Below the pieces are notes generated by a model. The model did not search any database and was not told the origin of the DNA. It was given only the letters and a program-made list of their open reading frames with translations. From Gemmatimonadota bacterium (lineage in GTDB: Bacteria > Gemmatimonadota > Gemmatimonadetes > Palauibacterales > Palauibacteraceae), in NCBI GenBank assembly GCA_963666735.1, contig OY762926.1, forward strand, positions 2,624,001-2,688,000: a stretch of DNA of 64,000 bases, given 5' to 3'. The position numbers and the translations under genes are program-made. The number at the start of each line of letters is the position of its first letter. Within the stretch, counting starts at the first letter, position 1. Below, one piece after another: positions 8,473-49,920 of this stretch.

Positions 8473-9654
8473 ATGACACAACCTGAATTCGTCACCGTTG
8501 ACCTGTTTGCGGGAGCTGGGGGGCTCTCCCTTGGCTTCCACGACGCCGGTTTCCGCCCGCTTCTGGGTTCCGACCTCGACGCGGATGCCGCGCGTACGTT
8601 TCGGCACAGTTTTCCCGAGACCGATTTCGCCGAAACGAGAATCGAAGATCTCGACGCAACCGAGATTCTACATGCAACCGGGTGCAGGCGAGGCGAGCTT
8701 GACGTATTGCTCGGCGGTCCACCCTGCCAAGCGTTCAGCGTTTACAATCACCAGCGGGGCTTTCACGACGAACGGTCAGGTTTGTTCCGCGAGTATCTGC
8801 GAATCGTCAAGGGGTTGATGCCGCGCGCGCTGGTCATCGAGAACGTCGTAGGCATGAGCTCTCTAGGGAACGGACGGGCCATCCGGGAAATTCACCGCGA
8901 ACTCGAACTGCTAGGCTTCACGGTTGAGCATCAGATCCTGAAGTCGGAGGAATTCGGTGTCCCCCAGGAGCGCCGAAGGATTTTCTTCCTCGCGTCGCGC
9001 GACGGCCCCGTCGTATGGCCGGAGCCGACTCACGGCAGTCGCGGGAACCTCTTCAGCCAACAGGTGGTGCCCTTCGTGAGCGTTGAAGAGGCGATCTCCG
9101 ACCTGCCCCCGCTCGGCATCGGCGACGGCATCGAGGAACGCGTACCCTATCCGTGTCCGCCGAAAAGCAGCTATCAACGTCGGATGCGCGAGGATTCCCC
9201 CGGGGTCACGAATCACGTCTCCGCCGCCTTGGCGGACATCAATCGGAGACGCATGGCATACATTCCGCAGGGCGGAAGTTGGCGAGATATCCCCTTCGAC
9301 CTGTTGCCTGCGGGGATGCAACGCGCCCGGCGCTGCGATCACACCAAGCGTTACGGACGGCTTCACCCTTCTGGGCTTGCCAGCACGATTCTGACGAAAT
9401 GCGACCTTCACTGGGGGGCTTACATCCATCCCACCCAAGACCGGACCCTCACGGTTCGAGAGGCGGCAAGATTCCAGTCTTTCCCGGACCGAATCAGGTT
9501 CAGCGGTTCTCGCGTCGAGCAGTACCGTCAGGTGGGGAACGCCGTACCGCCACTCTTGGCCAAGGCCGTCGCTGAAGCGGTGAGGAGAATGCTCACTGCG
9601 GGCGCGGCAGCACCGCGACGGGCAGCGGCGCATGTGTCATCACCCGCCGCCTGA
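8473..9654 (+). CDS. dcm: DNA (cytosine-5) methyltransferase
   Basis: Motifs DLFAGAGG, GGPPCQAFS, ENV, QERRRIF, LTVREAARFQSFPD, YRQVGNAVPP. Confidence 0.95.
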   Translation: MTQPEFVTVDLFAGAGGLSLGFHDAGFRPLLGSDLDADAARTFRHSFPETDFAETRIEDLDATEILHATGCRRGELDVLLGGPPCQAFSVYNHQRGFHDERSGLFREYLRIVKGLMPRALVIENVVGMSSLGNGRAIREIHRELELLGFTVEHQILKSEEFGVPQERRRIFFLASRDGPVVWPEPTHGSRGNLFSQQVVPFVSVEEAISDLPPLGIGDGIEERVPYPCPPKSSYQRRMREDSPGVTNHVSAALADINRRRMAYIPQGGSWRDIPFDLLPAGMQRARRCDHTKRYGRLHPSGLASTILTKCDLHWGAYIHPTQDRTLTVREAARFQSFPDRIRFSGSRVEQYRQVGNAVPPLLAKAVAEAVRRMLTAGAAAPRRAAAHVSSPAA

Positions 9655-9886
9655 CGCAAGCTGATCGGCAGGCCAGCCCAAGGCACGGCCACCGGCTGGA
9701 TAATCCTAACGGCCCGAGGATGTTGCCAGCCTCACGTTCGCTGGGCTTCTGCTCGACCCGAGAAAGCTCGGCTGGGCTCGTCTAGCTTGCCATCGACGCA
9801 TGCTTGATGCAGATATTGGCGTAGCTGAAGAACCTGCACGACCCTTGGATTCCCAAACCCATGAGCCCTCGACACCGACAATTCGA

Positions 9887-10747
9887 ATGAGCCGCTACGG
9901 GATTGCGGAGTGGTACGGTCGACCCTTCTTGGATCTCTGTTCGGACGAACGCCAGAGTTTGGCCGCAACGGCGCCCCAAGCGCTCCAAGAGATTGAGCCC
10001 CCGGATTGTCCGTTTCGTTCGATCACATGCAACAAGCAGGGTGGTGTATGTTCCATCCAGCCCTACGAGGAAGAGGGGGGACGTATCGGGCAAGTCGGCG
10101 GAGAGCCTGTCATTACCTGCCCAAACCGGTTCGAGCACGGACAACTTCTAATTCGCTGGCTGGCAGAGATCGTTAGCTTCTCCTCCGAGGAGGCGATGAT
10201 TGCCCGAGAAGTCCCGTTCATGAGAAGTACGACGACAGGTACGCCGGCGGGCAAGATTGACCTGGTCTTGGCGTCCCTTAGGCAGGGATTGCGATGGTTC
10301 GGACTTGAGGTACAAGCCGTTTATTTCTCCGGTCAGGGCATGTCCGAGGAATTCGAGGCGCTCCGTCACGACGCTCATGAGACACCCCCCTTCCCATTAC
10401 ATGCCCGACGACCGGATTGGCGCTCGTCAAGCGCAAAGCGACTGATGCCCCAGCTACGGGTGAAGGGCCCTACCCTCCGCCGCTGGCACTCCAAGATCGC
10501 AGTCGCTGTCGATGCGCCGTTCTTCGAGTCGCTTGGGGGACCATCGGACCCGCCAAGCCATGACCTCGACTCGGGCGACGTGTTGTGGCTGGTAACCTCA
10601 CTAAGCAACGGTCAGCTGGAGCGCCATCACTGGGAGGTGCTGACGCTCGAAGAATCCGGCAAGAAACTACTCGCGGCGGAGCCAGTTACTCGGGCTGCCT
10701 TTGAACAGGATCTTCGCGGCAAGCTAGCTCCGCTCGGAGAACCGTAG
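9887..10747 (+). CDS. NotI-family type II restriction endonuclease
   Basis: IAEWYG, Cys4 metal site CPF..CNKQGGVCS...ITCPNRF, KIDLVL..LEVQAVYFSG, RPDWRSSSAKRLMPQL; adjacent to dcm and vsr. Confidence 0.88.
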   Translation: MSRYGIAEWYGRPFLDLCSDERQSLAATAPQALQEIEPPDCPFRSITCNKQGGVCSIQPYEEEGGRIGQVGGEPVITCPNRFEHGQLLIRWLAEIVSFSSEEAMIAREVPFMRSTTTGTPAGKIDLVLASLRQGLRWFGLEVQAVYFSGQGMSEEFEALRHDAHETPPFPLHARRPDWRSSSAKRLMPQLRVKGPTLRRWHSKIAVAVDAPFFESLGGPSDPPSHDLDSGDVLWLVTSLSNGQLERHHWEVLTLEESGKKLLAAEPVTRAAFEQDLRGKLAPLGEP

Positions 10748-10800
10748 GCAGGTGTTATCGCTCGTCGATGTATCTCGAGGGTCTGCCCCCAGAGCTACGC

Positions 10801-10821
10801 ACTTCGCCCGGCGAGTTTTTT
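10801..10821 (+). terminator. Possible weak intrinsic terminator after the restriction gene
   Basis: Short hairpin TCGC-ccg-GCGA followed by T6. Confidence 0.3.
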
Positions 10822-10852
10822 CCTTTGCGGTCACGCGTTGGGGGCCAATACC

Positions 10853-11275
10853 ATGACGAAGCTCCCCGCGTCCGGTCCCCTGCCGAGGCCTCGGGACCCG
10901 GAAGAGGGGCGCGAGACGCTGCGCGAGGAGGCGATCCCGGCCGACGACGTCCAGCGCGTCCGCCTGCGGGCGCTGGAGTTCACGTCGCTGTGCCCGAAGA
11001 CAGGACAGCCGGACTTCGGGAGGGTGACGATCGACTACGAGCCGCGCGACCGCTGCCTGGAGTCGAAGGCGCTCAAGTTCTACCTGTGGTCCTTCCGGGA
11101 CGAGGGGGAGTTCTGCGAGACGCTCGCGGCCCGGATCGCCGATGACATCGTCTACGCCGTGGCACCGCGCTGGGTGCGCGTCAACGTCGAACAGAATGTG
11201 CGCGGCGGCATCGAGATCATTGCCGCCGCCGAGCGCGGCGAGCCGCCCGCAGAAGATTGCCAGCGAACCCACTAA
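10853..11275 (+). CDS. queF: NADPH-dependent preQ0 reductase (unimodular QueF)
   Basis: EFTSLCPKTGQPDF catalytic motif, QueF signature ESKALKFY, VRGGI. Confidence 0.92.
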   Translation: MTKLPASGPLPRPRDPEEGRETLREEAIPADDVQRVRLRALEFTSLCPKTGQPDFGRVTIDYEPRDRCLESKALKFYLWSFRDEGEFCETLAARIADDIVYAVAPRWVRVNVEQNVRGGIEIIAAAERGEPPAEDCQRTH

Positions 11276-12987
11276 CGTGTCATGCGCGTATCATGAACGG
11301 GGGCTTGACCTCCGATGAGCGCCTCTACCAGATCGGCACGGCGAAAGGCTGCGGACAATCGCTGCAGGGTACGCTCCCGATCCTTGAAGAGAGGCTCCAG
11401 TGCCACCTCGATGTCCCTCTCGGCTCTCGCCGCATAATCTTCCGCCCGAGCCGAGATAAGGTCCTTCGCCTGGTCGAACGTTTGATGGTTCAGCTTCTGG
11501 AGTTCCTTGATCGATAGGTCCATGTCCGCTAGCAGGAACCCGCCCATAAGCATGGCGACGAACCTGGAACCATACGCCAGAAAATCCGGTGCGTCCGGTG
11601 GAGGACGCTTGCGGCGATTCTCCGCCTGCCTAAGCAGCAAAGCTGCCGCTGCCGCCTGTGCACCGTTGAGATCCTCGGTGAAGATCTTGTTGTACAGTGC
11701 CCCAAAATGTTCTCGCCTCGAGAACCTCGCCTGATGTGGCCTCTCCCGCCACACGGCGAGCACCGCCTCCGCAACAACGGCGCTCGTGAATTCCCCCGGC
11801 GATACCTTACGGTCCTCCCGTTTCGTTCGGTATTTATATCCCAATCTGGCGATTGACTCGCCGAGAGCCTTCTGTCGAGCGTCGTTTGACTTCAAATCCC
11901 TAAGATCGACGGGATTCTGACTGTTGGTGGCGAACGTGATGGATTCCACTAGTTCCTGATCCTCCGAATCCAGCTCATAGATGCGCACAAGTACTTGCGC
12001 CGCCCGGATGTCAAGTCCCGTATCCCTGGCCGTCCGCTGAACGGTGCGGGCCGTCTGCCCGCCATTTACGACTTGGCAGTCGGCGAGCTTCACTCGCCAG
12101 TTACCCTTCTCGAGCGCGTTGTGCCGGAACTTGGAGCACGTGATGGTGATTCCGTTGTTGAAGAAATAGAAGTTCCCCCGCTGGGTCTCGTCTCGTAGCG
12201 TGGCCGCCACGGCCTCATTGACCCGGTTACCGGCGAGGCCCAAGTAACGACGGATATTACGCTCGAACAGACGATTGCCATGAAGTTCGGTGAGCCGTGC
12301 GAGTTCCGAGACGGACATGCGTCCGACCAAGACGCGTCGATAATCAAAGGTCTCGACAGTCGCTTCCCCCACGAGCTGGAGGTCTGCGGAAATCTCTCTC
12401 GGCGTTTGCAGTTGGCGGAGTATTTCCTCGGGCCCGATATGACGCCACTCGACTTGCGATCCGAAATCCGCCCGCGCACCGTCGATGCGATCCTCCGCCT
12501 CGGACGACCAACGCCGACCGTTGTTTGCCGCGACTGCGGTGACGTGCGGTATCGCACCGGCCCTGACGAAGGATCGGATGTCCTCGACGCGCTGCGACAG
12601 GCGGTCGTTCAAACTGACCTTCCTCTCGGGGTCGAAGAGCGTGCCGGTCGCGTCGATCAGAGCGGCGATTCCGGTCTCCGGGAACCCGGACTGCCCATCG
12701 AGACGCTGCCGGTATTTCCCTTGGATCAAGACGATGGGAAGCTCACCGTCCTCCGGTGGGTCGAAGTAGATTGCGTCAACGCCGAAATCGTGGGCCCCAT
12801 CGACTATTCCGTCGAATGCCTCGTCGTCGGTAAGGCCGAAGGCGGTCTTTGCCACGAGAAAAAGAAACGCGGCAGAGCGTTTCTTCTGCTCGTCGTTGCC
12901 CATCCCGAGTTCGTCCGTGAGAATGTCCGAGTTGTCTTCAACGATCCCTGTGACGCGCTGGTCGATGATTTGCGTGGCAAGATTCAT
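11272..12987 (-). CDS. AIPR family protein (abortive infection phage resistance)
   Basis: DGAHDFGVDAIY..IQGKY, LFERNIRRYLG, FYFFNNGITI, QVVNGGQT, ATNSQNPVDLRDLKSND. Confidence 0.92.
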   Translation of the reverse strand: MNLATQIIDQRVTGIVEDNSDILTDELGMGNDEQKKRSAAFLFLVAKTAFGLTDDEAFDGIVDGAHDFGVDAIYFDPPEDGELPIVLIQGKYRQRLDGQSGFPETGIAALIDATGTLFDPERKVSLNDRLSQRVEDIRSFVRAGAIPHVTAVAANNGRRWSSEAEDRIDGARADFGSQVEWRHIGPEEILRQLQTPREISADLQLVGEATVETFDYRRVLVGRMSVSELARLTELHGNRLFERNIRRYLGLAGNRVNEAVAATLRDETQRGNFYFFNNGITITCSKFRHNALEKGNWRVKLADCQVVNGGQTARTVQRTARDTGLDIRAAQVLVRIYELDSEDQELVESITFATNSQNPVDLRDLKSNDARQKALGESIARLGYKYRTKREDRKVSPGEFTSAVVAEAVLAVWRERPHQARFSRREHFGALYNKIFTEDLNGAQAAAAALLLRQAENRRKRPPPDAPDFLAYGSRFVAMLMGGFLLADMDLSIKELQKLNHQTFDQAKDLISARAEDYAARAERDIEVALEPLFKDRERTLQRLSAAFRRADLVEALIGGQAPVHDTRMTR

Positions 12988-15331: not shown

Positions 15332-16135
15332 TCAGCGGTGGGGACGCAGCAGATCCAGTAGGTCGGCCCGTGCGGGGACTTCTTCTCCGCTTTCCAGGAA
15401 CGGGCGGATATCGGCCTCGACCGCCTTCCACTCCACGCCCGCGATTCTCGCCGCGACCGCCTCGCGCCATGTGTCCCCGGTCAGTGCCGACGCCGCGGGT
15501 TCCGTCTGGCGGCGCGCCGCGTTCAGGAGATCCAGATTCGGGGGCGGCCACGCGGGATCGCTCAGATACCAGGCGAGGTCGTAGATGTCCCGCCCCTTCA
15601 GCCAGGGCCGGTGGAGCACCGCGTGCAGTTTGCCGGCCAGCAGCGACGCGCGGTCATGGTGATGGATCCGCAGGGACACGTGCCGCCGCACGAGGCGCGT
15701 CTCGGTCACCGCGCCCGCGGGCGGGCGGGTGTCCACCTCGAGCTTGATCCTGAGTGTCTCGTCGCGGTGGCTCGACAGACCGAACTCATGGGAGAGTCCC
15801 CGGAAACGGAACCATCCGGCGTGGACGGCCGCCGCGTCGCGGAGCGAAGCCATCGAGTCGTAGCCCTCCCGCCGGAACTGCGCGGTGATGGACGTCAGCC
15901 AGCGCCGCGGATCATAGCTCTCGCGGGGCCCTTCGAGGGCGAAGTCGAGGTCCTCGGAGTATCTCGGCAACCTGAACAGGAAGCGCAAAGCCGTACCGCC
16001 CTGGAAGGCCAGCGGCGACATGGCTCCGACCCTCTGCAGACCCTCCAGGATTCGGGCCTGCAGGTATTCTCGCATCACGTTGCGGCCGGCCTGTGGATCG
16101 AGACCCCGGACCAACTCTCGGAGATGGTCCTTCAC
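15332..16135 (-). CDS. AbiEii-type nucleotidyltransferase toxin (type IV TA)
   Basis: LAFQGGTALR, RYSEDLDF, IKLEVD, KLHAVL, KGRDIYDL. Confidence 0.9.
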   Translation of the reverse strand: MKDHLRELVRGLDPQAGRNVMREYLQARILEGLQRVGAMSPLAFQGGTALRFLFRLPRYSEDLDFALEGPRESYDPRRWLTSITAQFRREGYDSMASLRDAAAVHAGWFRFRGLSHEFGLSSHRDETLRIKLEVDTRPPAGAVTETRLVRRHVSLRIHHHDRASLLAGKLHAVLHRPWLKGRDIYDLAWYLSDPAWPPPNLDLLNAARRQTEPAASALTGDTWREAVAARIAGVEWKAVEADIRPFLESGEEVPARADLLDLLRPHR

Positions 16136-16779
16136 GTGACCGGCAGGGGTTCGTACGGCGGCGCCGGGTCACTCGCGCGCCGGATGAGGTGGGCCGCGGC
16201 GCGGGCCAGCTTCGGACTCCCCGTGGCGGCCGCCATCGCCCGCAGCCGCGCGGGCGAGAGATCGTCGACATCCAGACGCAACTCGTCGATCCAGGCCGGG
16301 GCATCGCCCCCGGGCTGCAGGTGCGCCAGGTCGAGGAAGGCCTTCTCGGGGCGGGCGACGAACGCGCTCTGTCCGACGACCAGGTCCACGAGTCGATAGC
16401 CGGTACGCAGCGCCGGCTTGACGTAGCGGAAGGAGAACCGCCCCAGCGGCGTCTCCCTCACGTGAGGGCGCGCGGGGCCGCAACTGGTGACCTCCGGCAC
16501 GTATTCCGGGATCGCGTTCGCGAAGGCGAGCGCCGACAGCCCGCTCACGTAGGAGCCGGGCGAGAGGCGGTTGGCAACGAGGAAGGGATGCGGATGCGCC
16601 TTCCGGTACGGTGGCGCCAACGCGAACAACCCGCGCCGGAGCCGCAGCAGTTTGCCGGCGGCGCACCAACGGCTGAGCTGCGCCTGGAGACCTGGCTCCG
16701 GAGCCCGCCCGCCGCGAAGGAAGCCGGTCTCGAACACTGGCTCATCCGCGACGATTTCAAGCAATTCTGCAAATTTCAT
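16132..16779 (-). CDS. AbiEi-type antitoxin
   Basis: QLSRWCAAGKLLRLRRGLF wHTH, SYVSGLSAL, ARPEKAFLD; GTGA-coupled to the toxin. Confidence 0.85.
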   Translation of the reverse strand: MKFAELLEIVADEPVFETGFLRGGRAPEPGLQAQLSRWCAAGKLLRLRRGLFALAPPYRKAHPHPFLVANRLSPGSYVSGLSALAFANAIPEYVPEVTSCGPARPHVRETPLGRFSFRYVKPALRTGYRLVDLVVGQSAFVARPEKAFLDLAHLQPGGDAPAWIDELRLDVDDLSPARLRAMAAATGSPKLARAAAHLIRRASDPAPPYEPLPVT

Positions 16780-16884
16780 GCAGAAAACGTGCTGTAATTG
16801 GCAAATAATCGCAACGAATTGTCGTGCCCCCCCCACAACGCGTTTGGGAGCGGGAAGAGGCGAGTCCCTACCGGGGGAGCACGA

Positions 16885-28667: not shown

Positions 28668-29507
28668 CTAGGTCGCGAAGGTGGCGAGGCTCTGTCCCTC
28701 GGGACCTTCCCGCAACTCCCGCAGCGCCCGGTCCCGGAGCTGGCGGACGCGTTCGCGCGTCACGCCCAGCAGGCGACCGATCTGCTCCAGCGTATGCGGG
28801 TCTTCGCCCTGCAGTCCGTAGTACAGGCGGACGACGCGGGCGTCCCGCGGCCGCAGACGCCGCAGGCCCTCGGCGATGTGCCGCTTCAGCAGACGCCCTT
28901 CGACGACTTCCGCGACATCCGTTTCGTCCGCGAGGAACCGCTCCGCGAGATCGCTGTCGTCGGCGGCCCCGACCCGCGCGTCGAGTCGAACCTCGCGCGC
29001 GTTCAGCCTCCGCAGCAGGGCGACCGTGGGCACCGTCAGCTTCGCTCCCTCCGCGATTTCCCGATCACTGGGTTCGCGATCGAGAGCCTGACGCAGTTCG
29101 CCCCGCACGCGGAGCATGCGCGCCAACTCGGTCGCCCGGTTGAGAGGCACGCGCACGGGCCGGCCCTGCTTCGCGATGGCGGACAGGATCGCCTGGCGAA
29201 TCCACCACACGGCGTAGCTGATGAACTTCACGCCGTGGTCCGGGTCGAACTTCCGGGCGGCAATGATCAGACCGACGTTCCCCTCCTGAATGAGGTCGAG
29301 GAAGCTCAGCCCCTTGTTGCGGTAGCGTCGGGCGACCGAGATGACGAAGCGCAGATTCGCACGGACGAGGCGGTCGAGGGCGGAGGCGTCCCCGCCGCGG
29401 GCGGAGCGGGCGGTCTCGCGCTCCTCGCTGGGGCTCAGGAGCGGATAACGACCCAGTTCCTCGAGGTAGCGTTCGAGGATGTTCGGCGACAAACCTTCGC
29501 GACCCAT
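28668..29507 (-). CDS. Sigma-70 factor (RpoD/SigA-like, short form)
   Basis: LVRANLRFVISVA, DLIQEGNVGL, KFISYAVWWIRQ, TLEQIG..GVTRERVRQ; ATG after GAGGAAG. Confidence 0.93.
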   Translation of the reverse strand: MGREGLSPNILERYLEELGRYPLLSPSEERETARSARGGDASALDRLVRANLRFVISVARRYRNKGLSFLDLIQEGNVGLIIAARKFDPDHGVKFISYAVWWIRQAILSAIAKQGRPVRVPLNRATELARMLRVRGELRQALDREPSDREIAEGAKLTVPTVALLRRLNAREVRLDARVGAADDSDLAERFLADETDVAEVVEGRLLKRHIAEGLRRLRPRDARVVRLYYGLQGEDPHTLEQIGRLLGVTRERVRQLRDRALRELREGPEGQSLATFAT

Positions 29508-29663
29508 CGCAACTTCCTCCCTTCGCGGGCGTCGGCCAGGCCGGGCGGCCGGCCCATCTGCCGGCGTCGGCCGCCACGCACGAAACGTCGGTCGCTCCCC
29601 CGAAGCTAGCGCGGCTGGGCGCCCCCGCAAATCTGTCGCCGGATGCGCCACCCGCGGAGCCCG

Positions 29664-32984: not shown

Positions 32985-33368
32985 GTGGAGATCAAACGCG
33001 ACCGGATGGTCCACCTCGGATACGCGAAGTACTGGCGCTCCGACCAGATCGTGGGACTGCTCCCGATCGAGGAAGACCGGGGACCCGGCAGGCGGACGGA
33101 GGTCTTCGTCGCCAGCAGCCCCGAGCCCGTGACCGCGTCTCGATCCGAGGCTTCCATCCTCCGGGACATGGCGTCGCTCCCGGACGAAGCCCGGGTCGCC
33201 GAGGCCGGCTCCATCGCCGAGGACCTCGTGGGCGCGCTGCGCGACCTGTCGCCCGTACTCAAGCGGATGCTGAAGAACGAAGAGGGGTTCGACGTCGAGT
33301 ACTGGGCCGGCAGACTCCGCCGGGTCATGGAGTCGGATGATGACGGGCAGGAGGACCTCTTCGGCTGA
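32985..33368 (+). CDS. Hypothetical protein, possibly a distant RemA/DUF370-like fold
   Basis: GTG after GGGAGG; host-like codon usage; VHLGYAKYWRSDQIVGL...GRRTEV. Confidence 0.75.
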   Translation: MEIKRDRMVHLGYAKYWRSDQIVGLLPIEEDRGPGRRTEVFVASSPEPVTASRSEASILRDMASLPDEARVAEAGSIAEDLVGALRDLSPVLKRMLKNEEGFDVEYWAGRLRRVMESDDDGQEDLFG

Positions 33369-33511
33369 CGCGTCCGCACGGCAGAACCGATGCGGCGGTA
33401 TCAACGGGATGTTTAGATGATGCCGCTGGGAAAAGTTCAAGCTCAGGGCGACGGGGATGAGGCTCAGGCGACGCCCCGGGCCGACAGTTGCGTTCGACGC
33501 CACGGTTGAGG

Positions 33512-33578
33512 GTCTTGCGCAACCACGCCCATATGGCTAAAGGTTTCGGGAGATAGTCCCCTGACCCGGGAGGACCAA
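33512..33578 (+). promoter_or_regulatory. Conserved cassette promoter/leader, copy 1
   Basis: GTCTTGCG-N16-GCTA-N15-AGTCCCCT-N4-CGGGAGG-N5-ATG; same motif spacing as 47559-47631. Confidence 0.6.
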
Positions 33579-33818
33579 ATGTTGCGCCTCAAGTCGTTCC
33601 TTCGCCCGCCTCTGTACCTCTTGCTCCTCGTGCTCGCGCTTCCGGTTACCGTGCGGGAAGTTACCGCCGCGAACCTGCTGGACTGTGAATCCCAGTGCTC
33701 GCACATGAGCGCGATAGTGTATCGGGAAGCGCTGGACGACGGCCACACTCCTACAGGTGCCAGAGCCATAGCCCGGCGTGCGTACAACAGGTGTATGAAA
33801 AACTGCGGCCCCGAATGA
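33579..33818 (+). CDS. Small secreted Cys-rich peptide (CxxxC-x31-CxxxC)
   Basis: Strong RBS GGGAGG, signal peptide, ATGA overlap with the downstream propeller gene. Confidence 0.75.
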   Translation: MLRLKSFLRPPLYLLLLVLALPVTVREVTAANLLDCESQCSHMSAIVYREALDDGHTPTGARAIARRAYNRCMKNCGPE

Positions 33819-37232: not shown

Positions 37233-37509
37233 TTGGCGATCCCGCAGCGGACGACCGAGTGTCGTACCGGAGCGGCCCGCCTAACCGCCGCCGAGCGCGT
37301 CGCGCTGACGGATGTGCTCACGAACGCTATCTTAGGCGGCGATGGCGACGGGGGCGGTCCTGGCGCGGAATCTTGCTCTGTAAACTGCAAGTTCGCGCAT
37401 GATGATTGCTCGGTTACCTGCCAGGATGGGTATTATGCTTGCTGCGACCACAAGTTTCTGGTTCGGTACCAGCTGTGGCTGCGAAGAGCAGACTCCGACC
37501 ATAATGTGA
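37233..37509 (+). pseudogene. Frameshifted Cys-rich peptide with a double-glycine-like leader
   Basis: Removing one T from TTT 37455-37457 gives ...ILGG-DGDGGGPGAESCSVNCKFAHDDCSVTCQDGYYACCDHKFWFGTSCGCEEQTPTIM*, ending just before the propeller ATG at 37519. Confidence 0.6.
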
Positions 37510-37518
37510 GCGGTCCCG

Positions 37519-38676
37519 ATGATTATATCACCTATGAGGATACGGCGTTGGCTATGCGGTTGCGGCGCGCTCGGCGCGATGTGGAGCGGCAGTGCCGCAG
37601 ATCCCGCAAGCGCGCTCCAAGCGGAGTGGCATTTGGCGGTCGCGCCGGTCTCGGAGTTTGGCCTTCGGGAAGGGCTGCCGCTGCACCGTGTCACCGGCGC
37701 GGTGGTTCTAGCGGATGGCCGCCTTGTTATCGCCGACGCCGGGAACCACCGTTTGCTGCATGTCTCGGCACAGGGTGAGTTGGTTCGTACGCTCGGACGC
37801 AAAGGCGGCGGACCTGGTGAATTCGAGTCGATCACCGCTCTGTTCGCGACGGACACGACCGTGTTGGCTTACGACGCTATGCAGTCGCGCGTAACCGTGT
37901 GGAACCTCGACGGGAACCCCACAGTATATCGATTGCCGGCGCCGCAGCAGCGACCCACGGCACTTGCCGCCATAGCTTCCGCTTCGGAATGGATATTGAC
38001 CGGCAATGAACCCCTTGAGACCACGAGTAGGGGATTGGTGACGCAGGAGGCATCGATCCTAACGTACGATCCGGTGGAGGATCGGTCCGTGAGGGTGGAT
38101 CGCCGACCGGTGAGATACGGATACGTCAGGTGGAGCGGGGACCGCTATTCACAGGGGTCTACACAGTTCCGGATGGGCTTCCTGGGATCGGCTCACATCG
38201 CGGGGAAGGCCGGCAGATGGTTTTTCGTTCCTATCGACAGCGCGGTTGTGGAGATCCGCGATGCAACGGAAGAGGCGGACCCCACAAAGATGCACCTGCC
38301 CATGGAGAGCGGGCCCTACTCGGTGCGGAAACTGAGGGAAGCGCGAGACGGTCTCATCTCCATCTCTTCAAGTTCGCACGCGAACCGGCTCAGGCAAGTG
38401 TATGACGATGTGGAGAGGAACCTGCCGCCGCGGACGCCGCCCGCTCGGCGAGTGCTAATGCTTGGCGAGAGTCTGTGGGTTGAGCGGTTTGAGTCCCGTA
38501 CGGACGGCAGTTCTGTTTGGCTGGTGGTCGATCCGAGTGAGCGCAAGGTCTTGGCTACGGCAGTCATCGCGCCGGGAATCACTTTGCTCGGCGGGAACGG
38601 GAGCGTGGCGGTCGTACTCACGCGGACGGAGCTGGGGGAAGAGGTAGTGAGTGTTCGGTCGATCCTACGCCCCTGA
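37519..38676 (+). CDS. Secreted six-bladed beta-propeller protein
   Basis: DGRLVIADAGNHRLL, LGRKGGGPGEF, LWVE, ELGEEVVSV. Confidence 0.82.
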   Translation: MIISPMRIRRWLCGCGALGAMWSGSAADPASALQAEWHLAVAPVSEFGLREGLPLHRVTGAVVLADGRLVIADAGNHRLLHVSAQGELVRTLGRKGGGPGEFESITALFATDTTVLAYDAMQSRVTVWNLDGNPTVYRLPAPQQRPTALAAIASASEWILTGNEPLETTSRGLVTQEASILTYDPVEDRSVRVDRRPVRYGYVRWSGDRYSQGSTQFRMGFLGSAHIAGKAGRWFFVPIDSAVVEIRDATEEADPTKMHLPMESGPYSVRKLREARDGLISISSSSHANRLRQVYDDVERNLPPRTPPARRVLMLGESLWVERFESRTDGSSVWLVVDPSERKVLATAVIAPGITLLGGNGSVAVVLTRTELGEEVVSVRSILRP

Positions 38677-44348: not shown

Positions 44349-45617
44349 TCAGGGGGTTCCGGCGCGGTCGGGGCAGTTGCGGTTGACCCGGTAGCGGTGG
44401 ACGTAGGGGACGCCGAATTCGCCGGGCGCCGTCGCCCAGACCTCGGTGCGACCGGCCCGGAGGATTCGCAGCCGCGGCTCCCAGTCTTTGTGGTCCGGCG
44501 GTCCCTCAATGCGCACCGAGCCCTCGAGTTCCCCGCCTTCAGCGTAGATCTCCCACACGTCGGCCGGGTCCGGCCACGCCTCGCGGAGGAGCCAGATCGA
44601 ACCGTCTCCGCCGGCCACGATCCGGCGCACGGGGGGATAATGCTCGGGAAAGGTGATGATTTCGCGTCCGATCCGCCGCTTGCGCCCGGGGTTGCCCGTG
44701 TCCCACGGAGACCCGCCCCGGGCCAGCTGGTCCGCCTTGAGTTCCCGCTGCAGCGATGCCTCGGCGCGCGTGACCGGCCGAGGTTCGTACGGGACCGCGC
44801 GATGGAGCAGGGTGTCGCCGTCGAACCGGATCTTCAGGAGATCGAAGCTCGCATCCGCCCGATCCTCCCTGACCTCCCCGATGAGGACGACGGCGGAGCC
44901 GTCCGGGGTCGCGGCAACCGGCAACCAGGACTCGCCCGCCCACGGACCGAGCGGATGCGAGGTCATCACTCCCCACCCGTACCGGTCCGTCTCGTGCTCG
45001 AGGGTGCGGGATGCCAGATGGCGTTCGACGATCGCGAGCGTGTCCACGACCTCGCCGGACGCCGAGACGCGGCGCAGGGCGGCCCGGTCGGCCTTCAGGA
45101 AGCGGTCCAGGTCCTCGTTCACGGTCCGGGAGGGCAGGAAGGCGCCGCCGGGTAGCGGCCTGCCGGGATTCAGGTTCGACCCCTCCTCCGGAAGCCGGAT
45201 CCGGAAGCTCACGCGATCGATCTCGGACCCATCGGCCGACAGGAACTGCGTACCGAGTCTGTGGCTTATCCACAACGTATCCCCCAGCCAGCCCACTTGG
45301 CGGGGCGGCGCGGGGAACTCGCCGGGTCCCTGGCCCTCGCGTCCGATCGTGCCCGCGGGTCGGCCGTCCGGCCAGAAGACGCGGATGGGATCCCAGGACT
45401 GGAGGAGGTACACTCTGCCGTCGGGCCCGATTGCCAAGTCCCGCACATAGGTGAGGGCCCCGTCACCGTCCACGGACCCCAGACGGAGCGTCTCCTCCAG
45501 TTCCCAGGGTCGTTCGCACACTTCCTGCCCCGCGAGCGGAGCCGCACCGAACGCCACGTACCCAGCCGCGACGCCGACCAGGGCGGCCGCCGCGCGGATC
45601 CGGCGGAGGCGCGTCAC
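44349..45617 (-). CDS. Secreted six-bladed beta-propeller protein (GTG 45617 preferred; ATG 45716 possible)
   Basis: Signal peptide, LRLGSVDG, DLAIGPDGRVYLL, IGREGQGPGEF, GGDGSIWL, FGVPYVHRYRV. Confidence 0.85.
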   Translation of the reverse strand: MTRLRRIRAAAALVGVAAGYVAFGAAPLAGQEVCERPWELEETLRLGSVDGDGALTYVRDLAIGPDGRVYLLQSWDPIRVFWPDGRPAGTIGREGQGPGEFPAPPRQVGWLGDTLWISHRLGTQFLSADGSEIDRVSFRIRLPEEGSNLNPGRPLPGGAFLPSRTVNEDLDRFLKADRAALRRVSASGEVVDTLAIVERHLASRTLEHETDRYGWGVMTSHPLGPWAGESWLPVAATPDGSAVVLIGEVREDRADASFDLLKIRFDGDTLLHRAVPYEPRPVTRAEASLQRELKADQLARGGSPWDTGNPGRKRRIGREIITFPEHYPPVRRIVAGGDGSIWLLREAWPDPADVWEIYAEGGELEGSVRIEGPPDHKDWEPRLRILRAGRTEVWATAPGEFGVPYVHRYRVNRNCPDRAGTP

Positions 45618-45827
45618 GCGCCGGCGTGCCGGGCGGCGAGGACCCCGGCTTCCAGCGAGACCTGGCTCATTGCGAGCGTCTCCCCCCCCCCCGCGGCGTC
45701 CAGTGGTCATATGCATCCACGGCGTCACCTCGTGCCCTCGGGTTTCGGCGACGCGCACGGGCCAGCAGGTCCAAGGGTCCGGGTCGTCCCCAAGCCCGAT
45801 GATGAGCCCCGGGCGCGACAGTCACAA

Positions 45828-46679: not shown

Positions 46680-47387
46680 TTATCCTTCCGTGCGGGTGAA
46701 GGTAAAGGTGCCGATGGGTTCGTCGGAGAAGGGAGTCACGCCCCGCAGGCTGTGAATCGGTTCCCTCGGCTGGGTATCGTCGTTGGCCGAATTGTAGGAA
46801 GGCCCGCTGTCCGTCCCCGCGTCGTAGGGGTAGAGGACGACCTCGAGTTCGCCGACCCAGTTGCCCGCGGCGTCGCGCAGCGGCAGGTCCGACACTCCCA
46901 CGAACCAGTCCGGGCTCGGGGCAATCATCGTGACGAGGGTGACGAGCGGGAAGTCCTCGCGAAGCGTGACCGCCTGAATCGTCGTGCTTCCGGGACTGCG
47001 GATCCCGGACCCGTTGATGACCGCCAGCGCGTTCGCCGGGATTTCGGCCCGGATCTCATTCGTCAGAGCACTGGTGCTTCCGGTTTCCGCCATGCTCTCG
47101 ATCCCCGGCGTGGCGGTGCCCTCCGGTGCCCAGAAGGTCGCGTCTTCGTCGTGCACGGCGCCGATCAGCGGCGAGAAGTGCGCCCCTCCCGGGAAGTTGG
47201 CCGGGTGCGTGGAGGCACTCCACGTCGCCTCGAAGACCACGCGGTACGTCGCCGTGGTCGCCGTTGCCGGGGGCGGCTCCGGGTCGGGCCTCGGCGCCGG
47301 GTCGGTCCCGGCGCCGCCGCACGCGAGCGTGGCGAGGACCGCAACCGCCAGCGGTCCGATCCAAGTGTTCGAGAACGTCGGCAACAT
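46680..47387 (-). CDS. Spondin_N-domain lipoprotein
   Basis: Lipobox TLAC; YRVVFEATWS..THP.NFP..AHFSPLIGAVH, MIAPSPDWFVGV, YDAGTDSG. Confidence 0.9.
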   Translation of the reverse strand: MLPTFSNTWIGPLAVAVLATLACGGAGTDPAPRPDPEPPPATATTATYRVVFEATWSASTHPANFPGGAHFSPLIGAVHDEDATFWAPEGTATPGIESMAETGSTSALTNEIRAEIPANALAVINGSGIRSPGSTTIQAVTLREDFPLVTLVTMIAPSPDWFVGVSDLPLRDAAGNWVGELEVVLYPYDAGTDSGPSYNSANDDTQPREPIHSLRGVTPFSDEPIGTFTFTRTEG

Positions 47388-47440
47388 TGGGTTCACGGTG
47401 GCTCTAACCCGTGAAGTCCCGCCAGGTTCCGGCGGCAATC

Positions 47441-47512
47441 TCAGGCTTTCGCGTGCCAGGCGGAGTGAGCCTCCGTCTCTCGCTTGGCGGGGCAACCGAC
47501 CTGGGGCTCCGC
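47441..47512 (-). repeat. Decayed duplicate of the epimerase gene 3' end (49926-49997)
   Basis: Ungapped 47/72 nt identity with a 13-nt exact core; AEPQVGCPAKRETEAHSAWHAKA* versus AAPVAGLPAELEAEVLAAWHARV*. Confidence 0.75.
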
Positions 47513-47558
47513 AGGTAATGAGGGAATCAACGTAATTCCGATACCGATACTCTCAGTA

Positions 47559-47631
47559 GTCTTGCGTAGAGTAGCATCACGTGCTACGGCTTCTTCGAGC
47601 GAGTCCCCTTCCAATCTCGGGAGGCGCCAGA
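47559..47631 (+). promoter_or_regulatory. Conserved cassette promoter/leader, copy 2
   Basis: GTCTTGCG-N16-GCTA-N15-AGTCCCCT-N8-CGGGAGG-N7-ATG. Confidence 0.6.
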
Positions 47632-48120
47632 ATGTCCTGCTTCAACTACTTCCAGAGGTCCGCAGTATTCGTCACGCGGGTCGTCGCCCTGCGGGTGCCG
47701 TCTGTCACCGCCACCACGCCGGGAGCACCGCTGTTCCGCCGAATCGTGGCCTCGGTGCTCGTTGCCACGATAGCAGTTCCTTCGCTGGCAAATGCTCGCG
47801 AACTCCCCGAGGACGAGGGACTGGAGCACGCTCTGCCACCCGCGGCAGCTCCCGTTGCCCAAGCGGGCATGAGTCTCAACGGCTGCCCTTCGCTAAACGG
47901 AGTCCCCGGGGCGGGAGGCTGCGTGACGGTGTGGCTGACGTGGGACGTCGCCATGAGTACGCCGGGCCCCGTCAGCGTCACCATCACCTTGCTCGAGCGT
48001 CGGATCGAATGTGTAAGCTGCGACTGCATATGGACCTACGAGGACAGCAATGGGCATCTGCGGCTCTTGCGGGACACGTGGCTTGACTGCGGAAGCAGCC
48101 ACGACGACGACTTGATGTGA
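47632..48120 (+). CDS. Small secreted Cys-rich protein (six Cys in the mature part)
   Basis: RBS GGGAGG; signal-like RRIVASVLVATIAVPSLANA; GTGA overlap with the propeller gene. Confidence 0.7.
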   Translation: MSCFNYFQRSAVFVTRVVALRVPSVTATTPGAPLFRRIVASVLVATIAVPSLANARELPEDEGLEHALPPAAAPVAQAGMSLNGCPSLNGVPGAGGCVTVWLTWDVAMSTPGPVSVTITLLERRIECVSCDCIWTYEDSNGHLRLLRDTWLDCGSSHDDDLM

Positions 48121-49264
48121 AGTCGATTCTCCGAAATGGCACGGTCGCGGTAGCACTCACGTTCCTCGCGGTGGCATGTGGGGACGGGGGCGGCGAGGTG
48201 GATCCGATAAGGGTGGCCGGATACCGCGTTTGGATACCCGGCCCGCTCGTTGAGCGGTACCCCCCGGACCCACACGACCTTCAGGCGGAGGACATCGTTG
48301 AAGGCGGCCTGGATCTTGCGGTGGGTGTAGGGGAGGGGGAAGGGATATACGTCCTCGATGCGGGGGCGAGGCACGTCCTGCGCCTGGACGGTGACGCAAC
48401 GCTGCAAGCCGTGATCGGCCGTCCCGGTGGTGGCCCCGGAGAGTTAGGAGCGCCGGTCTCGATCGAGGCGGACCTGCGGGGTGGTGTTTGGGTGGCGGAC
48501 AGGCAACACCATCGGCTGTCGCGCTTCGATTCAGACGGAGAACTCCTGGAGGAAACGCCGGTACCCTCGACGGTGCGTGGCTTCACGGTGCTGCCGAACG
48601 GCACGTTGCTGTACCGCAAGTTTGAGAACGGGGTGGCCACGCTGGCGCTGCACTCGGGGCGAGGGGCCGTGGATCTAGCCGCGGATCTTCCGGCGGAGTT
48701 GGCGCCGCAGGACTTGGCCTCCTACCTGGCTGAGTACGACCTTGAGTTTGCAGTGCTCGCCCCGGACACCGTCATCGCTTTCCGGAATTCGGGTCTTCGC
48801 GCCTACGGGGCATGGCGGATGGCGCTCGACACCTCGTCAGCTCGGATCACCGACATCGCCCGGGTGCCCATGCCCGTTTGGCTCTCAGAGGCGATTCGCG
48901 CCCAAGCGGAGGAAATCGAAGCATCCGCCCCCGAACGGGCCGAGGGATTCCGCCATCCGCTCGCAGATCGATCATCCCGTTCTCCAGGGGCGCGCGTATG
49001 GCCTCAGGCGATTTCTGGATCGTGCCGCATGTCATCGGCGGCACCGTGACTGCCACGACGATCCCTCTCCTGTCGGGCGATTCCGTTACCATCGTCCTAC
49101 GGTCGAGACCCTTGCGGGAGATAGATCGTTGCAACGGCAAGGTGGACTATGCGGTGTTCGGGGAAAGGTTGGCGATGCTCTGCAGCGACGAATTGCGCGT
49201 CTATGCGTTGCAGCGCGTCGAACCGGAAAGGTTGCCATTCGATACGAACCCGGCTGACGGGTGA
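48117..49264 (+). pseudogene. Six-bladed beta-propeller/NHL lipoprotein with a frameshift near 48950-48970
   Basis: Lipobox AVAC, IYVLDAG, IGRPGGGPGEL, VWVADR; the C-terminal blades continue in the frame of ORF 48812-49264, whose TGA overlaps the next GTG. Confidence 0.72.
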
Positions 49265-49920
49265 GGGAGGACCGGCTCCCAACCCGAACCCTCCCCCTCT
49301 ATCGGCGTCTTCTGCTGCTGCTCTTGAGACCGGGGCGTCTCTTCACGATGCTGCGGGAGGAACCCGTTTGGAAGGATGCGCTCGCGTGGCAGGTTCTTCT
49401 TGGCGCGCTGCTCTCCATCGCAGCGGCCATCGACACGCTCCCTCGCGTCTTCGAGTTCGGATCCGTGGCCCCGGTCGCCAGCCTTGCGACCCTTGGCATC
49501 GCCGCGGGGCTCGCCGTCTTGGTGGCCAGCCTCGCTGTTCCGCTGTTCTACGCTTCGGTGGCGGCCGTCCTGTTCATCGGCGTGAGATTCGTCATGCGGT
49601 GCGCCGTGTCCTTCGCCGAGATCTTCAGCGCCACGGTGCATGCGGCGTATGTCCTGCTCCTGGGCAGAATGATCACGTCGCTCCCGCCTCTTTCCGGGGC
49701 ATCTCTCATGGGCCCTCCGCAGCTTGGCTTTCGGCAACCCGCTCCCGACACCTCTTTCGGACCCTTACTGGTCGCGGGAGTCGTGGAGGCAGCGTTCTTC
49801 GCGCTGTTGGGCGTTGCGTTATGCCGGGTTTGTGGCCGTCGCCGGGTCGCCGTGGCGGCTGCGTTGGGAATTGCACTCTACGTGGCGACTATCGCGCTGA
49901 CGTTCGTGTTCCGGCTTTAG
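49261..49920 (+). CDS. Yip1-like membrane protein
   Basis: LLLRPGRLFTMLREEPVWK N-terminal motif, about five TM helices. Confidence 0.65.
   Translation: MREDRLPTRTLPLYRRLLLLLLRPGRLFTMLREEPVWKDALAWQVLLGALLSIAAAIDTLPRVFEFGSVAPVASLATLGIAAGLAVLVASLAVPLFYASVAAVLFIGVRFVMRCAVSFAEIFSATVHAAYVLLLGRMITSLPPLSGASLMGPPQLGFRQPAPDTSFGPLLVAGVVEAAFFALLGVALCRVCGRRRVAVAAALGIALYVATIALTFVFRL

Follow-up and report, generated by a model that had tools for sequence, protein, structure and literature searches.

The closest described counterparts of the element reported here are tandem repeats that lie ahead of bacterial genes. In Haemophilus influenzae, the leader of hmw1A carries a heptamer, (ATCTTTC)n, whose first repeat overlaps the −10 box and whose tract lies in the 5′ UTR, more repeats being accompanied by lower expression; the route from repeat number to expression (transcription, stability or translation) is left open in the portion of that study drawn on here (PMC8262952). 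The leaders of Moraxella catarrhalis uspA2, (AGAT)n, and uspA1, a poly-G tract, have strain-dependent repeat numbers that affect expression, as summarised in the sections used of PMC4679880. The same sections describe TAACTGA direct repeats of Beggiatoaceae, Cyanobacteria and Bacteroidetes, which overlap or replace the Shine–Dalgarno (SD) sequence, precede genes of all kinds and reach 169 sets per genome (PMC4679880). Most work on repeat-tuned leaders concerns individual adhesin genes of human pathogens. The element described here is a single longer, self-pairing repeat that stands ahead of many unrelated predicted secreted proteins in Ca. Palauibacter, a sponge-associated genus that is abundant and uncultured; two leaders of this kind lie in the 64,000-nucleotide stretch of DNA analysed (the window).

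Results

A shared motif at two gene starts

The initial annotation had reported an identically spaced promoter/leader motif at two gene starts, and GTCTTGCG-N16-GCTA-N15-AGTCCCCT-N4/8-CGGGAGG-N5/7-ATG is indeed present exactly in this form at 33512–33581 and 47559–47634. The fixed-spacer pattern has two matches in the window at up to two mismatches and none in any of 100 dinucleotide shuffles; in the whole genome (3.98 Mb), the search returns just the two window copies at up to three mismatches and four sites at up to four. None of 40 relatives has a slightly shorter form of the pattern at up to one mismatch, so that the exact spacing is not conserved, and what is kept across relatives is a looser leader architecture. 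The spacers have the lengths annotated; the first is equal in both copies because it is the plain 17-nt sigma spacer, and the second is the second commonest value of the leader family described below (5 of 23). A fixed-spacing motif private to these two cassettes, as originally conceived, would explain the exact 19-base match, the equal spacers and their uniqueness in the genome, but its absence from the relatives, the fact that sigma spacing and a family-wide repeat account for it, and a 13-nt insertion that alters it in another population (run X11) make this version most improbable.

The two cassettes

The features of both cassettes lie on the plus strand. Cassette 1 is preceded by an imperfect direct repeat, GCTCAGG[G]CGACG x2 (33440–33478), a candidate activator site that is length-variable, with a 12-nt insertion behind 33444 in run X11. 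The predicted sigma-70-type promoter 1 (33515–33543; TTGCGC, 17 nt, TAAAGG, no −7 T) is called from the family statistic and falls below the bar of a strict consensus scan. Repeat array 1 (33539–33562) comprises one decayed unit over the −10 box and one recognisable unit, GAGATAGTCCCCT (33550–33562), and the position of the −10 box places the predicted +1 at about 33550. The SD block GACCCGGGAGG with the start codon (33563–33581) resembles the unit, with which it has a CCCGGG core in common and is predicted to pair. P0001 (33579–33818) is a 79-aa predicted secreted protein with a CxxxC...CxxxC arrangement, whose first codons are part of the shared leader module, and its stop overlaps, as ATGA, the start of P0003 (33815–34912), an NHL-type β-propeller lipoprotein. 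A profile of P0003 and its relatives matches TRIM71 NHL domains (E 7e-27). Relatives of P0003 occur in 22 of 35 genus genomes and those of P0001, by direct search, in 2 of 35; an Atlas search with P0001 gave only leads below 0.9. Co-folding of mature P0001 with P0003 reaches 0.58, against 0.20 for the best control (contact agreement between runs 7% or more, partner pLDDT 71 or more). This is weak support: of the solved pairs, 116 of 157 reach the mark, as do 2 of 215 mismatched pairs, but only 18 of the solved pairs do so at or below 0.60, together with both mismatches.

Cassette 2 begins with the predicted sigma-70-type promoter 2 (47562–47590; TTGCGT, 17 nt, TACGGC, a TG extended −10, no −7 T), also missed by the strict consensus scan. 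Repeat array 2 (47597–47609) is a single unit, GAGCGAGTCCCCT, at the predicted +1, which matches the family unit at 11 of 13 positions; the SD block CTCGGGAGG with the start codon (47616–47634) is predicted to pair with CCTTCC just upstream. P0002 (47632–48120), a 162-aa predicted secreted protein with 7 Cys, represents the commonest cargo family (13 of 35 leaders). It is followed, with a GTGA overlap, by P0004 (48117–49264), an NHL-type propeller lipoprotein that is frameshifted near 48941–48950 in this assembly (two frames versus a 413-aa relative), and a 219-aa membrane protein overlapping the propeller stop (49261–49920; weak YknW-family match, E 1.6e-5, under the cut-off) is likely the third gene.

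The description of the two cassettes as unrelated proved wrong. On the evidence of their sequences they are related, each consisting of a small predicted secreted Cys-rich protein and an NHL-propeller lipoprotein: a single iterated profile captures both propeller genes (cross E 1.2e-14 and 1.2e-23) together with 91 ORFs of this genome, and in genomes G051 and G013 close relatives of P0003 and P0004 are encoded by adjacent genes. Mature P0001 and mature P0002 are unrelated; the first 16 residues of P0001 recur on a P0002-type protein in G050, and the start of P0002 recurs on a P0001-type protein in G042. The first 7–10 codons (M-[SF]-R-[FL]-x-x-F) are common to unrelated cargo, with a pyrimidine fraction of 0.73 versus 0.52 in 114 secreted-like controls, and the leader module therefore reaches into the ORF. 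Cassettes of a small Cys-rich secreted protein and a 6-bladed/NHL propeller lipoprotein occur in Bacteroidota, in DUF5128/PF17170 neighbourhoods, with the same gene-pair layout; P0001–P0004 reach no Pfam or NCBIfam cut-off. We know of no 13-mer repeat leader from these Bacteroidota cassettes, and no paper describing cassettes of that type was found in the literature searched.

Elsewhere in the window, a third pair of small ORF and DUF5128/NHL propeller (37233–38676) has lower GC and no detected 13-mer leader, and a small defence cluster (8473–12987 and 15332–16836) comprises a C5 methylase, a NotI-family endonuclease, AIPR genes and an AbiEii-type toxin–antitoxin pair.

A leader family built on a 13-nt repeat

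Common descent of the two window leaders, proposed in the initial annotation, is supported, both being low-copy members of one leader family; they resemble each other no more than they do other members (0.15–0.5 ungapped identity upstream). A leader of this family consists of a TTGNNN-17-TA promoter-like pair, a tandem 13-mer, (G[AC]G[CT]GAGTCCCGG)n, and a ribosome-binding block that resembles the unit. The AGTCCCCT of the annotated motif is a remnant of this copy-number-variable repeat, and a decayed unit often fills the space from the last full unit to the SD block. Across the 35 distinct leaders tabulated (four more were seen, outside the filter of the table), n ranges from 1 to 36. The units stand head to tail without unique spacers, which rules out a CRISPR array. 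All 29 tandem arrays checked are in sense orientation and within 37 nt of the SD block and start; 24 have a TT[GT]-16/18-[TC]A pair, a predicted promoter, 4–14 nt upstream; and secretion is predicted for 22 of the 29 cargo proteins from a strong hydrophobic segment at the N terminus, a further 4 lying just under the bar and 3 being broken or without such a segment.

This genome holds eight members, the two window leaders and six that looser searches placed at about 333575, 336986, 2330574, 2571738, 2867743 and 2889810, compared with 91 propeller-like ORFs. All six head secreted-protein/propeller cassettes, several carry the 13-mer head to tail, with multi-copy arrays at 337001–337041 and 2571678–2571716 of the genome, and no family leader was found before a housekeeping gene in this genome, as the initial annotation would have it. 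Across the genus, 12 of 36 genomes have the leader pattern (0 matches for the reversed control), and these 12 also have the tandem unit. The unit occurs in 0 of the 109 remaining genomes of the order, and its one match among 381 Gemmatimonadota from other genera does not lie in a leader. In a scan of a named collection that required the SD block, 17 of 57 matches are true leaders, 15 of them titled Ca. Palauibacter and 2 just Gemmatimonadota or Gemmatimonadetes, the other 40 being set aside as chance after inspection.

Outside the genus, eight metagenome loci and one locus of a viral collection, together seven distinct loci, carry the tandem unit in 3–11 copies. Read by eye, the gene that follows begins with a signal-peptide-like sequence at all seven. 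A TTGACA-17-TANNNT pair stands 9 nt ahead of the first unit at two of them and a weaker, more distant pair at a third; of the others, two are truncated at a contig end and two have no pair at the 9-nt distance. The relatives of two of their cargo proteins are named Phycisphaerales and Phycisphaeraceae, and the unit is probably present in a second phylum; GroEL of locus L182 is equally close, at 68%, to a Planctomycetota and a Gemmatimonadales genome. The tandem unit occurs in 0 of 401 sampled Planctomycetota, a result that is uninformative since a cargo family is missing from that sample as well. On the viral-collection contig (L186/L206), a 7-unit array and its secreted-protein gene lie on the opposite strand beside ORFs that by eye resemble phage terminase and portal genes, and a prophage flank may carry or border this cassette.

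The P0002-type cargo family also stands behind another conserved leader, with GTTGA direct repeats, a GC-rich hairpin and GGAGG and no 13-mer (L046, L047, L050–L053, L055, L056, L059, L060 and G000:C1:3512330-3512432). In L005 and G000 such cargo follows a gyrase-B-like gene, possibly the ancestral site.

Predicted promoters

The annotated sigma-70 pair holds up in its −35 box, 17-nt spacer and TA, and falls short in that neither window copy has a −7 T, G and C standing there instead. In the family, 23 of 35 leaders have a TT[GT]NNN-17-[TC]A pair 5–14 nt ahead of the first unit, versus 160 of 25,918 control sites (0.6% of random AGT[CG][CAG] sites); the distance after the −10 hexamer is 10 nt in 8 and 11 nt in 5 of these 23. 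Counting 7 nt from the hexamer, the predicted +1 would fall on or within the first unit. The −7 T is found in 5 and missing in 18 of the 23 predicted leader promoters; among tRNA genes, all 12 with a promoter match (52 scanned) had one with −7 T. The leader promoters may be weak or factor-dependent, or may be served by one of three region-1.2 sigma factors.

One of the three region-1.2 genes of the genome, a 327-aa sigma-70 family gene below all NCBIfam equivalog cut-offs, lies in the window (28668–29651), and its position 4 kb upstream of cassette 1 is treated as coincidence. A sigma-54 reading of TTGC is rejected, the spacing to the upstream GG not fitting. Thirteen tRNA genes are clustered at G000:C1:2289347-2294905 on the minus strand.

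Several IS-like sequences present in multiple copies stop directly before TTGAC/TTGCG boxes in this genome and in the leaders of relatives, suggesting promoter-adjacent targeting; examples of multi-copy elements in G000 are C1:853252-853303, 174121-174359 and 611029-610814. Insertion of the array behind a conserved host promoter was also rejected: among the matches listed, no foreign leader had its promoter intact without the array in this genome, and for the 232 nt surrounding promoter 1 the matches in other genomes began only at the array.

Leader RNA and candidate regulators

The SD sequence is predicted to be mostly paired in all leaders listed, with an unpaired probability of 0.03–0.41, and the median energy needed to open it is predicted at 11.3 kcal/mol in the 35 leaders versus 7.1 in 122 ordinary genes, a comparison whose p value is overstated because the leaders are kin. 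In the window, the SD pairings first noted, GTCCCC with GGAGGAC and CCTTCC with GGGAGG, are borne out as the minimum-energy folds from the predicted +1 to AUG; these folds modestly beat shuffles (z −1.73 and −0.75; with longer flanks, z +0.41 and +0.30). Covariation, the signature by which an RBS-sequestering hairpin was to be recognised, did not appear: an alignment of 32 of the 35 leaders (three near-duplicates left out), in which invariant pairs are uninformative, gives four consensus pairs and no compensatory change. Pairing of the SD may be a by-product of the palindromic core of the unit. Its predicted accessibility shows no relation to n (Spearman −0.14, p 0.42), and a parity switch, in which odd or even copies would free the SD, has no effect (p 0.93).

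Described leader RNAs and regulators were rejected on the following evidence. A riboswitch or attenuator-type RNA would agree with an SD in a predicted stem, but there is no Rfam family and no covarying pair; Rfam 15 gave just two sub-threshold miRNA matches for eight loci, away from the arrays. The genome, 94% complete, encodes no PF02599 (CsrA), against a CsrA/RsmA target; a single NusG (one PF02357) and no NusG paralog, against an RfaH/UpxY ops element; and no CarD that could be found, only Mfd. The idea of a GANTC or CCNGG methylation array, in a genome with nine N6/N4 methylase matches of unassigned specificity, fails for GANTC, which is not avoided (observed/expected 0.91–1.01). As to a reverse transcriptase origin, the two matches to such enzymes lie far from all leaders.

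The array could nonetheless bind one regulator, as a DNA operator over +1 or through an RNA-binding protein that frees the SD at the mRNA 5′ end, the cassettes forming a regulon in which n sets binding strength. An operator over +1 is the classic repressor position and fits an array over the predicted start; the unit keeps its sequence behind unrelated promoters, in front of unrelated cargo and probably in two phyla, and the weak −10 boxes without −7 T suggest factor dependence. Weighing against such a regulator are the missing CsrA and CarD, the single NusG, the lack of GANTC avoidance, a 13-bp period out of helical phase and a search that found no regulator gene common to the leader neighbourhoods, an AraC-like HTH gene adjoining two loci only, and we regard the proposal as rather unlikely, though it is compatible with tuning by repeat number and would supply its mechanism. 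The AraC-like gene, a weak match to Pfam HTH_18, lies ahead of two leaders that have CACCGAT direct repeats in their promoters (L199:2416-3231, L201:3003-3803, L200) and has three homologues in G000, at 1927991, 1933093 and 2899046.

Copy number and strain differences

Strains were compared through assembled contigs, so that the differences are those between populations. One contig of run X11, which comes from another study and bears another host species label, has 13 extra letters, GGGAGAGAGTCCT, behind 33547, and its substitutions bring both units flanking the insertion nearer to consensus. Near-identical leaders with different n are seen at 1 versus 3 copies within this genome (L065/L076), 3 versus 6 (L187/L158) and 4 versus 10 (L087/L189). 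The window copies should slip rarely because both are short and decayed.

Both window cassettes occupy strain-variable slots. In runs X17 and X19, agreement with the window ends directly behind the stop at 33368, and cassette 1 is therefore absent or replaced there. In run X7, one contig has another propeller gene in place of 47319–48044, which covers leader 2 and most of P0002; run X11 retains leader 2. The minus-strand propeller gene at 44349–45758 of the window has another position in run X7, where it follows 47318, a sign of local rearrangement among strains.

Variation in n might also be neutral, the leaders descending from one cassette head and the self-complementary 13-mer slipping so easily that n drifts without any effect on expression. 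This would suit the flat relation between n and SD access, the lack of covariation, the broken cargo genes (L032, L063, L088 and L187), the presence of a cargo family behind a leader without the repeat, and the many short tandem duplications in this genome, which has 844 short tandem repeats, four other locus pairs also having a unit in common. It accounts poorly for the retention of the unit while promoter and cargo are both replaced, and for its recurrence, equally placed, outside the genus with unrelated cargo. Nor does this genome show a general excess of tandem repeats behind promoter-like sites (21 of 1688 versus 16.6 expected), which also counts against a general duplication of the first transcribed bases. 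We consider neutral drift unlikely.

Exchange of promoters and cargo

Homology between leaders switches at the array in both directions. Seven pairs have their cargo in common and an upstream identity at background (0.43–0.52; median 0.50): L078/L088, L064/L067, L061/L064, L010/L032, L083/L202, L089/L190 and L069/L081. Conversely, three have a promoter in common (0.88, 0.78 and 0.67) and unrelated cargo: L082/L149, L010/L073 and L038/L067. The switch itself is seen at the array in L078/L088, L064/L067 and L010/L032 one way and in L082/L149 and L010/L073 the other. Promoters and cargo genes would thus appear to have been swapped by recombination at the array. IS-like sequences ending before the −35 box explain turnover further upstream and not that of the promoter core, and insertion sequences beside several promoters could explain part of promoter turnover.

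Such exchange raises the question of whether the array is kept for it, as 26–40+ bp of common homology that lets cassettes swap promoters, expression being set by the captured promoter and not by n. The two-way switches and the strain-variable slots of both window cassettes agree with a recombination joint of this sort. We nevertheless hold it to be improbable, as there is no linked recombinase, exchange also occurs a few codons inside the ORF (L001/L004, L002/L017), and fast promoter divergence and IS insertion offer alternatives; no 13-mer unit recurs at the cassette ends in this genome, which disposes of an attachment-site model as well.

Discussion

The 13-mer leader is a real, sharply defined element of a known kind, and the two window copies are its least developed members. 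For its role, we favour, at about an even chance, a gene-leader module whose 13-nt repeat varies between strains and likely tunes the expression of predicted secreted proteins in the style of a contingency locus, with the two window sites as low-copy members. Under this proposal, transcription is predicted to start on the first unit, so that the mRNA would begin with the array, and pairing of the last unit over the SD is predicted to keep translation low. Slippage would add or remove units, the variation itself being observed; by analogy, longer arrays would alter mRNA output or stability and not SD access; and promoters and cargo genes would be exchanged by way of the common homology that the array provides. 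Counting against tuning are the constancy of SD access with n, the lack of covariation, the rarity of the −7 T and the insertion sequences beside several promoters.

A bolder version, which we offer as speculation and think unlikely to hold in full, makes the array a portable expression head of Gemmatimonadota and Phycisphaerales: a protein would read the mRNA 5′ end, n would set output, and the array would reassort promoters and secreted-protein genes without an integrase, yielding a combinatorial promoter-by-cargo library of exported Cys-rich proteins.

The natural alleles, with n from 1 to 36, are a ready series for asking how a 5′-UTR repeat changes expression, a question that is open even for hmw1A, and the unit can serve as bait for an unknown regulator. 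Should copy number prove neutral, the 13-mer would still be useful for recognising a mobile family of cassettes for secreted proteins. No description of the repeat was found in Rfam or in the largely open-access literature searched; the main text of PMC10469786 contains none of the words 'repeat', 'promoter' and 'propeller'.

With contingency loci, the leader has in common a repeat between predicted promoter and start, an n that differs between strains and cargo predicted to be secreted. The unit of described cases is 1–7 nt long, and because it measures 13 nt here the leader is likened to these loci, at the level of assembled sequence, and not counted among them. A TAACTGA-type network is ruled out by the canonical GGAGG and the nearly exclusive prediction of secreted cargo. 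As far as the sections of PMC4679880 used here describe them, the TAACTGA repeats resemble the 13-mer in that one unit forms short sense arrays before many starts, patchily across phyla and in up to dozens of copies; unlike them, the 13-mer leaders keep a canonical SD, begin at the predicted +1, form 1–4 tandem arrays per genome and head cargo that is almost all predicted to be secreted. From the same sections, uspA2 and uspA1 are alike in having a strain-dependent repeat number between the promoter and start codon of a surface protein, and differ in their short units, which serve single genes of a pathogen with no module across gene families (PMC4679880). The nearest likeness is with hmw1A/hmw2A, as presented in the portion of PMC8262952 drawn on: in both systems a repeat that begins at the −10 box occupies the 5′ UTR (by prediction here), varies between strains and heads genes for exported proteins. 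Unlike the hmw heptamer, the unit described here is a GC-rich, self-complementary 13-mer that the SD block resembles and is predicted to pair with, and this one repeat, here known from sequence, serves many unrelated cargo families in probably two phyla (PMC8262952).
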